A stretch of 62,033 nucleotides of DNA, the filler included, from Hausera hauseri (taxonomy: Eukaryota), in NCBI GenBank assembly GCA_046269625.1. It is 12 parts of 12 records of this genome, joined end to end, with 100 filler letters (N's around TTAATTAATTAA, not from the genome) between each part and the next. Parts side by side here need not be neighbours in the genome. Positions count along the whole stretch, not along the records: positions 28,361 to 35,140 come from JBJURY010066438.1; positions 35,241 to 44,464 come from JBJURY010425474.1; positions 44,565 to 49,074 come from JBJURY010548230.1; positions 49,175 to 53,620 come from JBJURY010578116.1; positions 53,721 to 57,959 come from JBJURY010682107.1; 7 more parts are not named here. One strand, written 5' to 3'. Position numbers and translations under genes: made by a program. How positions within the stretch are numbered: position 1 is the first letter of the stretch; every line of letters begins with the position of its first letter. The notes under the pieces are model-generated. The model made no database searches. It was not told the DNA's origin and saw only the letters and a program-made list of their open reading frames with translations. Below are positions 34,463 to 54,322 of the stretch, one piece after another.

Positions 34463-34468
34463 TCACAC

Positions 34469-34479
34469 TGGTGTCAGAA
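34469..34479 (+). promoter_or_regulatory. tRNA-Leu-type primer binding site TGGTGTCAGAA
   Basis: Complementary to the 3' end (TTCTGACACCA) of metazoan tRNA-Leu(CAA). Preceded by ACAC, as at 54308. Confidence 0.6.
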
Positions 34480-34754
34480 TCCCACATATGTACACAGTAG
34501 CTGTACAATGGGCAGAAGTTAAATACTGTATAACTGTCACGGATCCAGCAGGATCAACCATTGTACATCAAACATTTAACCCAGGAGAGTTTGTTTGCCT
34601 CATAATCGAAGGACAACAAGTGGAATTTTACATCCCATATCTACATCTGGGCGAAATCCAGGAATTATTTTATTACTCCATCAACGACGCAGTCGACACA
34701 ACAGATACTGTCAGTGCAGCACCCGTCGTGCCGAATAAAATGCAAACAACCAAC

Positions 34755-35140
34755 AATTGCTGAAGCATTTCTCATCCCTCTTACTAACCATAATATAATT
34801 GTCGGGATATTGAAGGAACAGAAGAGAATGACTATGCTATGCAGACCATTATGTGCTATTTGAGTTTCTTGAAAACTAGTCAGCTGCTGTTGGATAAAAC
34901 TCTGACGTTTCTACTACAAAAATGGGATTTAGCCGTTAAAAATCCTAAGAAACCACGATTCAATCATTTCCTAATGGAATATATTGCGATGTGCATAAAT
35001 ATCGTGGACAATAACAATTCCAATTACATCCGTGAATTTGAAACTGCACTGGCACCGATATTTGAAACGATTTTTCAGAATGAAATCGAACAATTCCTGC
35101 CGTACATATTTCAATTGCTGAGTCTCCTTCTGGGTTGCAG
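34755..35140 (+). pseudogene. CSE1L: Exportin-2 (CSE1/CAS) C-terminal domain fragment
   Basis: EENDYAMQTIM...KNPKKPRFNHFLME...FETALAPIFETIFQNEIEQFLPYIFQLLSLLL matches CSE1L ENEYIMKAIM...KNPSKPHFNHY...QNDVQEFIPYVFQ. Confidence 0.85.
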
Positions 35141-35240
35141 NNNNNNNNNNNNNNNNNNNNNNNNNNNNNNNNNNNNNNNNNNNNTTAATTAATTAANNNN
35201 NNNNNNNNNNNNNNNNNNNNNNNNNNNNNNNNNNNNNNNN

Positions 35241-36199
35241 TGGTCGTGTTGAATATTGTATTTGAGGCAGTAATTTTATCAAGTGTTTTTACGGTGGCGA
35301 CAAAATCTTAGTTGTCCATATCTAAATTCGATTCAGTATAAATATATTTTAAAATTTTATGGAATAAGTTGTGATTATTTAAAAAATCTGTTAACTCGAA
35401 AACCTATTTAATATTGGCTTCCGTGTGACCTTCATGTGCGCGACAGTTGAAACGTCATTTGGCTGGACAATTTGGTTCTTATGACCATTTTTTAAACAAC
35501 GTTGTTTACAGTCCACCAGAAGATTGTAATAAGACAAAAAACCAGACCCTAGAATGGCTGTCTGGACATTGGCAACGGTGAATGTCCAATGAAATTTTGA
35601 AGTAAAGTTTGGCAAAGTGAAAGAGATTCTAGAGATACCGAAAACGTATAACGACTGCCCGGAATCTGTAAAAATAGATTTTGTTTTAGATAGTACGTTT
35701 TGGACTGGAGAGGTGAGCGGTAATAGCGATATTGGTGCACCTGTGTCGATAAGAAAGTTTATGTATTGAGATGGTGGGCTTATGGTAGAAGCCCTTAACG
35801 TGAATACAGCGAAAGAAGTTTTTCAGCAATCAAAATGTAAAGAATGGCCGTCGTGAGTGCTCGCCGTAAACTCTGGCGGCGGGGTTAGTTGTTTGAAAGA
35901 GGGGAACGTGGACGACTGTTAGAAGTTAAGCTAGCACGTCCGTTGTTTGAATATTGTGTGTTGCTGTTAAAAGTGCAACCTGCGATGCACTTTTGCGCAT
36001 TATGTCTAAATTTTGCATGGTACATGCAAACAATGTTGTTAGTATGGTACTTCTGGGTGTAAAATTTGCACCAAAGATGGCATTTTTGTGTTTTCTTATC
36101 GAATCTACCGTGATAATTGTGCTGCCCACAACGGCCGGCGCCCTCTAGCCCATTCGGTTGGGCACGGCCGGATTTCCGCTGCCGACGCGTCGGGCACAT
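35241..36199 (-). mobile_element. CsRn1-clade-like gypsy copy 3 (gag C-terminus, protease)
   Basis: CMYHAKFRHNAQKCIAGC; FLIDTGA; WTFTVANVQTAILG.FL.YYNLLVDC. Confidence 0.9.
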
Positions 36200-36299
36200 A
36201 GGCAGGCTTCGATTTTCTGCCTCTTGTGCAAACTGTGTACATCGCTCCTATTCCACAACAATTACCGCCCACTCAAACAGCAATCTCCCCTCATCCTGC

Positions 36300-36900
36300 T
36301 GTGAATTTCGTGGTGGATCTGCATATGTCATTTCTTTTAACGGTGATAAGATTTATTCAGTTTCAATTTGCAGCAAGGCCAATTCTTCTCTTGTTTTGCC
36401 ACCATTTGTTGTTTACAAAGAGACAGTTTTGATCAGTCATGGGCGACAAACGGCCCCACAGGAACAAAGTATTCCATTAGTGACAGCGGCTGGATGGGAG
36501 TGAGGCAATTCGAAGAATGGATTAAATCACAACTTATCCTACACAAAATACAGCATGACAACGACCGTCCAGTTTTGTTTTTTCTAAATAGTTATGGCAG
36601 TCATCTCATAATACAACGTTGCGTCAATTTGTTTACAAAATAAAATTCTTCTCGTATGTTTGCCGCAGAACCTAGTGACATTCTGCAAATGTTAGATGTT
36701 CGATTTTATAGCATGGTAATAGCATTCGGAAAAACGTTCTTTCTCGTTGGTTTTACGCTGTCCAACTGCCGTCCATTGAAAATGATAAATTCCCCGCTAT
36801 TCTGCAATCATTTTGGAAGAAAATCAATTTCAAATTGTTGACGAGATCGTCTCAAAAATCGGCTTATTTCCGTTTGACAAGGAAAGGATATTACGTCAAT
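36300..36900 (+). mobile_element. pogo/Tigger-type DDE_1 transposase remnant
   Basis: LPPFVVYK; SGWM...FEEWI...RPVLFFLNSYGSH; SDILQMLDV (degenerate LILDGHGSH and SHILQPLDV motifs). Confidence 0.8.
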
Positions 36901-51448: not shown

Positions 51449-52154
51449 TAGTGCATATAATAGTTTAACTATATACATCCAAAATTAAGCAAATTTTGCA
51501 TTATTTTTTGGTTGTCTGACAGAATCCGTGAAATTTTATTGTCTGTCCATTCTTCAGATTTCCATCCTCAGAATTTTCTGATTGTAAATATGAAATCATG
51601 ATAATATTATCTATGTATATGAAAATTTTCACAGTTGGAAATTGGTCACTACAGTAATAGTTCCCTTGTTATATTCAGGAATTTGTAGTGATAATGGTGT
51701 TTAATGAACTGTTGTGATGTTACCTAATAACATAGGGCTGCATCATTCATTAATAATACTACTGATAAGGCTCGGATCCACCGATGGGGCGTTGGGGCGA
51801 ACGCCCGGCATGAAAAAATAACTAAAAAAATTATTACAGAATTAAGAAGTACTGTAATAGAATTAAGTTGTAATACCGCGTAATTCAAGTCGGTCTGCCT
51901 ACCCAAAGACCCAACGAACTAATATATTTAATTTTCCACCGGCCTCCCATACTTGATGTGTCACGTGCCACGGTGTCACATATGTTAAGCCTAGTATTCT
52001 TGTGACGTACTCAATTTCTAAGTTTCTAGCTTTGTCTTAACGGAACACATAGGTACATGTTGGATTCCTACATGTGTGAGTTCCCAAAGGCATCTTCTTT
52101 ATCTTTGTTCTTTCATATAGTAAAGTGTATACTCAATAAGATACTTTACGGTCC

Positions 52155-52379
52155 AGGGGATGCGATCTGAGGATCATAAAATGCGCGAAATTGTTCGGTC
52201 GCCGGGGCTTTGCTCGGACTCCAATGGGAAGCTTACAACGCTTCCCCAGACCTCTAGCTGTTGGGGTGAAGGTTACAACCTCCTCTCAAAGAACCCAACT
52301 CACCTCGGCTCTTCGAGCCACGCTCTTATCGCCTCCGGTGATAATACCCGGAATTTTAAAAATCCTGGATCCGCGCCTG
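52155..52379. mobile_element. GC-rich MITE-like remnant with hAT-like terminus
   Basis: GC island containing CCGGGGCT...GGGAAGCTTACAACGCTTCCCCAGACC.CTAGCT and ending CCTGGATCCGCGCCTG (reverse complement CAGGCGCGGATCCAGG). Confidence 0.5.
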
Positions 52380-52849
52380 GTGGTACATGCCTCGAACCAA
52401 TTTTTACAAATCGATTTACTTGAAAAATTACAAATTTATATTCGTCCGAAATGCGGCATTAGAATAACACTGAATATCTTTAGTAATATTTAAACGCGAT
52501 TACTTTGTTTTGAAGGCTTCACGAATATTTTTCTTGCACATTCTTAAATCTCCATTGGTAGTCTTCAATCAATATTTCCATCCATGATCTGTTGAGAACT
52601 GACTTGTCAATATTTTATTTCATTTTTATATAGTAGCAATTTCTGTACAAATATTTAATTTTCTTTTAATATTCTAACAATCCGAAACATTCATTTATTT
52701 TATGATCGCTAACTCTTTCTAAGTATGTTTCTGCGCTTCTTATATAAAAGTACTGAAGTAATTTGTTGAACACAATAAAAAGTTTTAGCTGGTCTTTGAA
52801 TTTTTACTTTCTACTGACAGGTACGAAGTGGTTTATTCGAGAGACGAGA

Positions 52850-53620
52850 TTGATAATTGGTGATTACAGCGACACATATCTGAAGACAGATGTATTACAT
52901 ATTCGAAAGCTTCAGGAATGCCATTGTGCAGTCTCACAAACTGAGCTACACGTGTTTTTTCACTTTTCAGAGAATATCATGAGCAGCGTTGCTCAGGTAT
53001 AATGGAGTGAAAATTCACATTCATAAGGATTACAACATGATAATGATGCTTAAATGATGGATATATGGAAGAATTTGTAAAGTAGTGAATCGACGTGCAA
53101 ATAATCATTATGTTAATCGTGATGAAACAAAACCGTCATTTTTCATCACATATTTGGATGTCAATAATTTCTAAGGTTAGGTAATGGGCGTCAGTCTTTC
53201 CTACGAAAATTTCAAATGAGTTGAAAATCCGAATAGCATAGATATCACAAGCAGTACAGATGATGCTGAAACAATATTTATCTTTCAGGTAGACATTTAA
53301 TACGATTGACTTCAATATGTAGAACATGACTAGTTGCCTTTTCTACCAGAATCAAAAAATCCACATTACCGAAAATTCAGAAAATTGTTAATCTATCTGG
53401 TTGATAGAGTAGACACGTTGTACATTACATAGACTTGCAACAGACTTCTGAATGGTTCATTGTAAACAAAGTGCATTGGGCTTTTGCAATTCAGTCAATC
53501 CAAATGACTTCAATGGTATATTCAATTCCATTCAGACCTGCGAACATATGTGAAAAACGTTTGCAAAAAATCAACTCTAATTGTACAACAACCATGGAAA
53601 ATATGAGAAACATGCTGCCG
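52850..53620 (+). mobile_element. Second, highly decayed protein-primed polB remnant
   Basis: IGDYSDTYLKTDVL, HKDYNMIMML and LYNN..MENMRN are colinear with the polB at 9210-9985. Confidence 0.7.
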
Positions 53621-53720
53621 NNNNNNNNNNNNNNNNNNNNNNNNNNNNNNNNNNNNNNNNNNNNTTAATTAATTAANNNNNNNNNNNNNNNNNNNNNNNN
53701 NNNNNNNNNNNNNNNNNNNN

Positions 53721-53925
53721 AACTTCCGGCCTGATTGTTTTTACTACTATCAATTCAATCTCATGTACTTCCTTATCCCACTCCACGTTGACTTTTAACT
53801 TTCCCAAACAACCATCACTTTTCGAAAAGGCTCCAGTCAATATTAGAGCGCACTTCGTTAGCTTAAGTTGTCCTATCGCTTTCCAAATCTTTTCACTGAT
53901 TACTGACACCGTGGATCCACTGTAG
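53721..53925 (-). mobile_element. Ty3/gypsy aspartic protease fragment
   Basis: (Y)SGSTVSVISEKIWKAIG...LTGAF...CLGKLKVNVEW. Confidence 0.7.
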
Positions 53926-54142
53926 TGCCTAGGATGTGGCTGCACTGTTTCAGGCTGTCCAATCGGTGAGAGAATTTTCCCCACCATGTGATTATGCGAC
54001 ACAAAAGTTGCATAATATAGCGGGAATCATCGTTAGTGCGAAAGCTGGAGATTCCAGATTTACAGATACTAGAAAGGACGAGCAGGAAAGGTGTATCACT
54101 ATCGAGTCAATGACAATATTGGAATGAAACTATAATTGCCAA

Positions 54143-54322
54143 TGTATAGATCCGTAGAGACGCTGTATATATGTATATATCTATTTTATGTGTATTATGT
54201 ATATAAATTATGTATTGATTATCAATTTGTAATTTTAAGTTTGAATATAACTTTTCTTGTGGATTTATTTCATCATTTCTTGGATTTATTTCAACCTAAT
54301 AAAACATACACTGGTGTCAGAA
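54143..54322 (+). mobile_element. Short LTR (TGTAT...ATACA, 168 bp, AATAAA at 54298) + tRNA-Leu PBS TGGTGTCAGAA (54312-54322)
   Basis: TG...CA with a 5-bp inverted repeat, poly(A) signal just inside the 3' end, 1-nt spacer, then the PBS. This is the standard 5'-LTR layout of gypsy elements. Confidence 0.7.

Follow-up and report, generated by a model that had tools for sequence, protein, structure and literature searches.

According to the available text of Tan et al. 2016 (PMC5131818), LTR-mediated retroposition in metazoans produces chimeras with several parents, which then spread secondarily. The capture mechanism is already known from that work. Animal LTR elements are known to capture genes, which makes relics of such events ordinary. 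The PBS of Steamer and C-clade Gypsy elements is given in the accessible part of PMC8905726 as TGGTGTCAGAAG, which is complementary to tRNA-Leu and varies in its last three bases, and Gypsy elements of the CsRn1/PwRn1 type are reported, in the accessible part of PMC2582038, to be primed by tRNA-Trp. In the literature searched (most subscription papers and supplements lay outside it) no Leu-primed family of cargo carriers with the layout described below is reported, and a search for a Trp-type priming motif returned no match.

We analyzed 62,033 nt of the Hausera hauseri assembly GCA_046269625.1 (the window), which consists of 12 joined contigs, one of them (contig 6) a satellite. A search of the whole window for the 11-mer TGGTGTCAGAA gave three exact matches, all on the plus strand, on contigs 7, 8 and 11 (sites 1, 2 and 3; Table 1). 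This confirms an earlier note on this DNA, which had placed the word on three different contigs, with a CA 1 to 3 nt before each copy (the gap is 1, 3 and 1 nt at sites 1, 2 and 3) and a tRNA-Leu match that stops after 11 nt every time; the 12th base is T, T and C, where the Steamer PBS, as printed in the available text of PMC8905726, and a mouse probe have G. At all three sites the word is identical at 11 of 12 nt to that published 12-nt tRNA-Leu PBS, the same holds for the antisense probe for mouse tRNA-Leu(CAA), and both mouse and sea-urchin tRNA-Leu match the word in the source excerpts available. No tRNA gene or Rfam family was detected within the window by ARAGORN or Rfam. A CA lies 1 to 3 nt ahead of 297 of the 1,512 TGG sites in the window (19.6%), a base rate at which its presence at three of three sites has a probability of ∼0.8% and counts in favor of reading the words as PBSs.

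Table 1. Features at and around the three copies of the PBS-like word (window coordinates).
Feature	Coordinates	Strand	Evidence
Decayed Ty3/Gypsy fragment (RNase H plus linker) immediately before site 1, in the place where an LTR would be expected	34040..34462	+	Pfam RT_RNaseH
Open frame of 98 codons with an ATG at 34488, in the repeated segment	34467..34763	+	no credible relative
Site 1, tRNA-Leu PBS-like 11-mer, ∼7 nt past pol break	34469..34479	+	exact match
GAATCCCAC, reverse complement of distal PBS, possible fold-back junction	34477..34485	+	mouse tRNA-Leu(CAA) probe
CSE1L/exportin-2 internal fragment, cut by contig end, within repeated segment	34794..35140	+	Pfam CAS_CSE1, E 1.7e-27; PDB Cse1 aa 567-668
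Site 2, PBS-like 11-mer, ATG 8 nt later (38185)	38166..38176	+	exact match
Near-complete UBR1/2 gene, UBR box to C-terminus, with frameshifts and altered zinc-site residues	38380..43780	+	Pfam zf-UBR, ClpS, UBR1 wing, PRT6_C; PDB UBR2 from aa 97
Four UBR1/2 GT-AG introns, frame kept	40393-40440, 41188-41240, 41662-41717, 43615-43656	+	
Piece of eEF2 (aa 43-75) preceding site 3	54020..54118	+	PDB, E 2.5e-11
AT-rich stretch, 23% GC, AATAAA at 54298, ends ATACA-C; possible LTR tail	54125..54311	+	
Site 3, PBS-like 11-mer	54312..54322	+	exact match
Two fused KDM5/JARID1-like pieces, weak match	54315..54485	+	PDB, summed E 4e-4, no significance for either piece by itself
SLC26 fragment from ∼aa 183, retained 44-nt intron at 55267-55310	54489..55890	+	
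Axonemal dynein heavy chain, ATP-citrate lyase (57215-57403) and KAP3 (from 57389) fragments, fused	55900..57959	+	

We put at about even the chance that sites 1 and probably 3 are real tRNA-Leu PBS relics of decayed, gag-less, gene-capturing LTR derivatives, and leave site 2 undecided. The earlier note had proposed a genome-wide family of cargo-carrying, tRNA-Leu-primed non-autonomous retroelements with capture breakpoints right after the PBS, a proposal of which part stands. The published PBS match (in the accessible text of its source), the CA at three of three sites, the pol junction with its repeated gag-less segment at site 1 and the AATAAA/ACA and host mosaic at site 3 all speak for it, but no shared or paired LTR was found, pol precedes site 1, host sequence precedes site 3, introns are present and nothing is shared downstream. 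The note was right that host-gene pieces follow in the PBS orientation, with CSE1L, UBR1/2 and SLC26 all on the plus strand, and that the word leads into cargo rather than gag, the window's own gag being absent up to 1.5 kb downstream at all three sites (tblastn with the window's gag frames; Pfam).

At none of the three sites do LTR, PBS and cargo follow one another. Paired or shared LTRs were not found in the contigs, by a weak test, nor was a purine tract with TG found downstream within the contigs, which end 0.7 to 6.3 kb past the words. The 5′ flank of site 1 is pol rather than LTR, host eEF2 lies upstream of site 3, and the TG...CA ends before sites 2 and 3 are at chance level and have no second copy. 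The missing LTR similarity is nevertheless weak evidence, because the window holds two related Gypsy copies that likewise have nothing in common upstream of their putative priming sites, one of them carrying an ILF3/ZFR-like host piece there.

Like the LTR-mediated retrocopies in the available text of PMC5131818, the sequences here contain partial host pieces, fuse several parents and have host sequence in place of element ORFs, and the further spread of those retrocopies as non-autonomous copies may have a counterpart in the site 1 segment, which is repeated in two organisms, X1 and X2. The retrocopies of that text are, however, free of introns and have recognizable LTR-element flanks with microsimilarity at the joints, whereas here introns remain in SLC26 and UBR, no flanking LTR was found in contigs that stop within the cargo or shortly past it, and the priming word is itself preceded by host or pol sequence. 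Steamer and C-clade Gypsy elements, as far as the accessible part of PMC8905726 describes them, have short LTRs with an ATAAACA-like end that resembles the stretch before site 3, but here none of the sites is followed by gag-pol, a paired LTR was not found and site 1 has pol in front of it. The neighboring Gypsy relics, on contigs 4 and 8, bear the CHCC gag signature of the CsRn1/PwRn1 type, whose reported tRNA-Trp priming (PMC2582038, in the text available) argues that this type is not the source of the Leu word. Same-strand host mosaics are also a likeness to Pack-TIR / Pack-MULE capture, in the accessible part of PMC8277862, while neither a terminal inverted repeat pair nor a target-site duplication was found here, and no right-hand end was identified.

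Four introns lie in UBR and one in SLC26, which argues against capture from mRNA, a process that should remove them; the pieces of CSE1L, dynein, ACLY and KAP3 showed none. In the full version of the earlier note's reading, which we consider rather unlikely, all three words would be the PBSs of a single type of Leu-primed, non-autonomous element, with the capture breakpoint right after base 11 and LTRs too diverged or overwritten to recognize. The stop point, strand and CA are alike at three of three sites, an ATG stands exactly 8 nt past the word at sites 1 and 2 (a post hoc observation), TGTAA...TTACA (178 nt) precedes site 2 and TGTAT...ATACA precedes site 3, and the stretches upstream of these two sites are weakly alike (2 to 4% of shuffles; one of 9 to 20 tests). 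Blastopia retrocopies, moreover, have a fixed switch site in the available text of PMC5131818. Against this, 5-bp inverted ends occur at 483 of 1,000 random CA positions, eEF2 sits upstream of site 3, no sequence after the word is common to the sites, and the UBR gene extends over 5.4 kb, contains four introns and has a GC3 of 0.44 to 0.52, above that of the other host pieces (0.28 to 0.42, plectin excepted). The data establish for the three sites neither a single family nor a constant breakpoint after base 11. The word at site 2 may be chance. A weak homolog search with the UBR N-terminus was empty, and the ORF at 37533-37862 has no PDB match and no credible Pfam match. A spliced-leader reading of the ATG 8 nt past two of the words was rejected, as the spacers differ and site 3 has no such ATG.

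The word occurs on average 0.02 times per window in shuffles, at least three copies arose in 0 of 100, and the probability of at least three is 2e-6 to 1.2e-4 for this word, or 1e-4 to 6e-3 per window after a look-elsewhere correction that assumes 50 PBS words; a 1e-3 event will be expected once many windows are scanned. Triple 11-mers are in fact common: 58 of 53,152 distinct 11-mers occur on at least three of 11 contigs (satellite contig left out), compared with 47 to 49 ± 9 in Markov nulls and 30 ± 6 under plain shuffling, and a TGG-starting 11-mer triplet arises in 20 to 53% of 30 null sets per model. The frequency of such triplets suits the reading that two or three of the words are chance in TE and pseudogene debris, the one at site 3 being a decayed KDM5 codon run. 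There the word reads in frame as W-C-Q-N and aligns to the KDM5 iron-binding stretch, the weak KDM5 match overlapping it; an unrelated synthetic coding sequence also contains the word, read in frame as W-C-Q-K, and the window's CHCC-type Gypsy is of the kind reported, in the available text of PMC2582038, to use tRNA-Trp and not tRNA-Leu. The KDM5-like pieces themselves have no Pfam match and, in a weak homolog search, no match among 17 candidates. Because chance would make the PBS identity, the CA at all three sites, the junction position at site 1 and the start of an X2 contig all coincidental, we judge it quite unlikely.

Contig 11 is a mosaic of eEF2, KDM5-like, SLC26, dynein, ACLY and KAP3 pieces, of which five genes, all on the same strand, lie downstream of site 3, with SLC26 beginning ∼170 to 180 nt past the word. 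An AATAAA occurs within 30 nt of site 3, as it does at 34 of 1,507 TGG sites. Two candidates in this region were rejected: a purine tract and LTR start at 54070-54096 (a purine run plus TGT), which is eEF2 coding sequence, and an intron within the AT-rich sequence that precedes site 3, which as set gave no joined frame.

If sites 1 and 3 are PBS relics, host transcripts and the RNA of another element would have been co-packaged in a Gypsy particle, and the reverse transcriptase, by switching templates to either side of the priming site, would have joined these RNAs. Helper elements could then have copied those products whose ends were preserved, before the copies decayed. A bolder version, which we think unlikely, is an old gag-less, tRNA-Leu-primed cargo system in two related organisms, in which the PBS truncated to 11 nt would be a fixed joint with unrelated RNA (host genes, intron-containing transcripts, another element's pol) swapped in on both sides, and in which the version with CSE1L and its own ORF would have multiplied strongly. 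Were joints fixed at the truncated PBS genome-wide, this would suggest aberrant plus-strand transfer as a route of gene shuffling.

The pol piece before site 1 and the minus-strand pol on the same contig share 65% identity across 412 nt, and this match ends at 34462, a proximity to the word with a chance of ∼1.5% when five junctions are counted in 6.8 kb. The sequence GAATCCCAC after site 1 does equal sense tRNA-Leu sequence, as the earlier note had observed, being the reverse complement of the bases that come next in the probe; the fold-back idea is, however, post hoc and involves only 6 new bases, a 6-mer that has 9 occurrences in the window. CSE1L begins ∼315 nt past the word. The intervening open frame has 6 representative matches at E ≤ 1e-3, each adding up several weak stretches of a repeat protein, a best Atlas score of 0.79 (at most a lead), a best PDB match of E 0.06 and no relative among the viral or metagenome contigs searched.

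Sites 1 and 3 have 15 nt in common from 34465, the start of one X2 contig, which could make them the left ends (CACTG...) of Pack-type elements, DNA transposons whose gene fragments would have been taken up as DNA. CMC elements have CAC-type ends, Pack-TIR / Pack-MULE mosaics can keep introns, and the intron retained in SLC26 fits capture at the DNA level. We regard this as very improbable: a search of contigs 7, 8 and 11 (which may end before one) that allowed up to 3 mismatches found no inverted copy of the 15-mer, there is no subterminal similarity between the sites, and the exact tRNA-Leu match is left unexplained. The 15-mer is unremarkable, with 16 shared 15-mers observed against 9 ± 3 in nulls.

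We consider the segment of open frame and CSE1L in two organisms the most solid lead, pointing to an old piece of host origin that a mobile element has amplified. Among the 16 of 7,653 pieces listed, none bridges the window's pol-to-word junction, and one X2 contig begins with its first letter at 34465 and spans the open frame and CSE1L at 81% identity. The summed contig depth behind site 1, which does not equal copy number, is 2,610 to 6,362 in X1 and 70 to 98 in X2, with 10.5 and 1.8 in a near-unique bin.

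The window, twelve short contigs linked by runs of N, is animal-type genome sequence with many Ty3/Gypsy relics and host-gene fragments, and it contains exactly three exact matches to the 11-mer TGGTGTCAGAA (the word), all on the plus strand and on three contigs as the earlier note had stated. The word equals bases 1 to 11 of the 12 in the tRNA-Leu primer-binding site (PBS) of Steamer (PMC8905726), and a mouse tRNA-Leu(CAA) antisense probe begins with it (PMC7997516). The PBS match does end after 11 nt, with base 12 differing from the published tRNA-Leu PBS at all three sites, and the same probe confirms GAATCCCAC at site 1 as an inverted distal part of the PBS.

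Positions of the word and of other features in the window
Feature	Position	Strand	Description
Site 1	34469	+	contig 7, exact match to TGGTGTCAGAA
Site 2	38166	+	contig 8, exact match to TGGTGTCAGAA
Site 3	54312	+	contig 11, exact match to TGGTGTCAGAA
Host-like piece	16000-16730	-	contig 4, ILF3/ZFR-like (E 1.2e-6), upstream of Gypsy putative priming site, in expected 5' LTR place
Host-like piece	33560-34000	-	contig 7, in expected 5' LTR place of Gypsy relic
Broken frame	37200-37870	+	upstream of site 2, Cys-rich, hydrophobic
Host pieces	56765-57775	+	dynein, ATP-citrate lyase and KAP3 in one stop-free frame, 337 codons
Epiplakin/plectin repeat fragment	49175-49660	+	contig 10 start
Polymerase B and endonuclease VII pieces	8487-9900; 52850-53580		protein-primed polymerase, mutually related
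C-type lectin domains	19400-21650		inverted pair (n = 2)
Satellite	22586-28260		contig 6, simple, TTCG-type
Integrase-like tail and ORFs	58060-62033		then several long ORFs without Pfam match

The expected count of 0.03 proposed earlier holds for a word fixed in advance (0.024-0.092), but some 11-mers do reach at least three contigs, at null-level counts (58 of 53,152 distinct 11-mers, satellite contig left out; Markov nulls, 47-49 +/- 9). Allowing for an assumed number of 50 PBS words, the chance of a triple is 1e-4 to 6e-3 per window, and the presence of CA 1-3 nt upstream of all three sites (base rate, 297/1512) has a probability of about 0.8%. A chance triple in one window is therefore unlikely, and across a large scan it is not negligible. 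That the word is a chance match at two or three of the sites is a minority reading, to which its in-frame occurrence in a synthetic coding sequence (PMC13363220) lends something; the weights given to this and all other explanations are judgements, none computed.

The reading we favour, at about even odds, is that the word at site 1, and probably that at site 3, is what remains of a true Leu priming site in a gag-less, decayed LTR derivative. Such derivatives would have been assembled by template switching among co-packaged RNAs, as described by Tan et al. 2016 (PMC5131818), would have been primed by tRNA-Leu at the word, and may then have multiplied by retrotransposition via helper elements before their copies decayed. 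No LTR precedes site 1; in its place is Gypsy RNase H coding sequence, 65% identical to minus-strand pol of the same contig up to 34462, so that the word lies ~7 nt past the pol homology break. Downstream are a 98-codon open frame, for which database searches gave no relatives, and a CSE1L piece. The span 30641-35140 was compared with contigs assembled from two public runs, X1 (from organism A, perhaps the source of the window itself) and X2 (from organism B), and the segment 34465-35140, holding this frame and the CSE1L fragment, is clearly repeated in both. Summed contig depth over 34541-35140, which is not a copy number, was 2,610-6,362 in X1 and 70-98 in X2, against 10.5 (X1) and 1.8 (X2) for a bin that is nearly unique. 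Among the 16 contig pieces listed out of 7,653 for this span, and the 12 loose ends listed out of 917, one X2 contig has its very first base at 34465; it spans the frame and CSE1L and differs from the window at 86 of 464 positions (~81% identity). The 12 listed differences inside the two frames, a small and pre-selected sample, fall on codon positions 1/2/3 as 5/4/3, an even spread as expected if the window copy is decaying.

At site 3 the word sits within a same-strand host mosaic. An eEF2 fragment lies upstream, separated from the word by 190 nt of 23% GC that contain AATAAA and end in ACA-C; two weakly matching KDM5-like pieces (E 4e-4, summed) follow, then SLC26 from about aa 183 with a retained 44-nt intron, then dynein, ACLY and KAP3 pieces. 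Because the KDM5 alignment takes in the codons of the word itself, the alternatives for the word are a PBS to which KDM5 became joined and a decayed stretch of KDM5. That the words at sites 1 and 3 are ends of Pack-type DNA transposons seems very improbable.

At site 2 an ATG lies 8 nt after the word, and is followed by a UBR1/2 gene that begins near the UBR box, extends to the C-terminus, and has frameshifts and changed zinc-site residues. Since its four GT-AG introns (42-56 nt) leave the frame intact on removal, it reads as a DNA-level copy or a host locus in decay and not as a captured mRNA. Of the short sequence words sampled from contig 8, a fraction of 0.75 is present in X1. With a GC3 of 0.44-0.52 and such short introns, UBR1/2 (38380-43780) differs from SF3A1 on contig 9, which has a GC3 of about 0.3 and a 1.3-kb intron; the two may differ in origin or genomic compartment. 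The broken frame upstream of site 2 is tetraspanin-like by eye only and gave no database match.

The 300-nt stretches upstream and downstream of the three sites have nothing convincing in common; the strongest likeness, between the upstream stretches of sites 2 and 3, was matched by 2-4% of shuffles in one of many tests, and the top upstream-versus-downstream score (site 3) was equalled in 3%. Within the contigs, the sequence after the sites yielded neither a 3' LTR nor a purine tract followed by TG. TG...CA ends precede sites 2 and 3, as they do 483 of 1,000 random CA positions. This negative is weakened by a control comparison, in which the related Gypsy copies of contigs 4 and 7 likewise have no similarity upstream of their putative priming sites, and by the ILF3/ZFR-like piece on contig 4. 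Gag sequences of contigs 4 and 8 carry a CHCC signature of the CsRn1 kind, and we take the degenerate priming sites of these Gypsy copies to be Trp-type. CsRn1-kind elements are reported to be tRNA-Trp-primed (PMC2582038).

The sites depart from Steamer-type elements in both LTR and gag-pol. The mosaic works as classic LTR retrocopies do, but the UBR and SLC26 introns contradict membership. Gene capture of this kind is a known process, and tapeworm Gypsy families have variable PBSs, Leu included (PMC12471100); our literature search found no Leu-primed cargo family of such layout. The word and the mosaics are real and a single family is unproven, and we regard as doubtful, though less so than a chance match, the earlier note's full proposal of a Leu-primed, cargo-carrying retroelement family with breakpoints right after the PBS.

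The contig 10 epiplakin/plectin piece, with one stop and up to 96% protein identity to teleost epiplakins, continues into unrelated sequence and is either artefactually joined fish DNA or a transfer, a warning that chimeric assembly could explain some mosaics. The polymerase B and endonuclease VII pieces are presumably Polinton-like.
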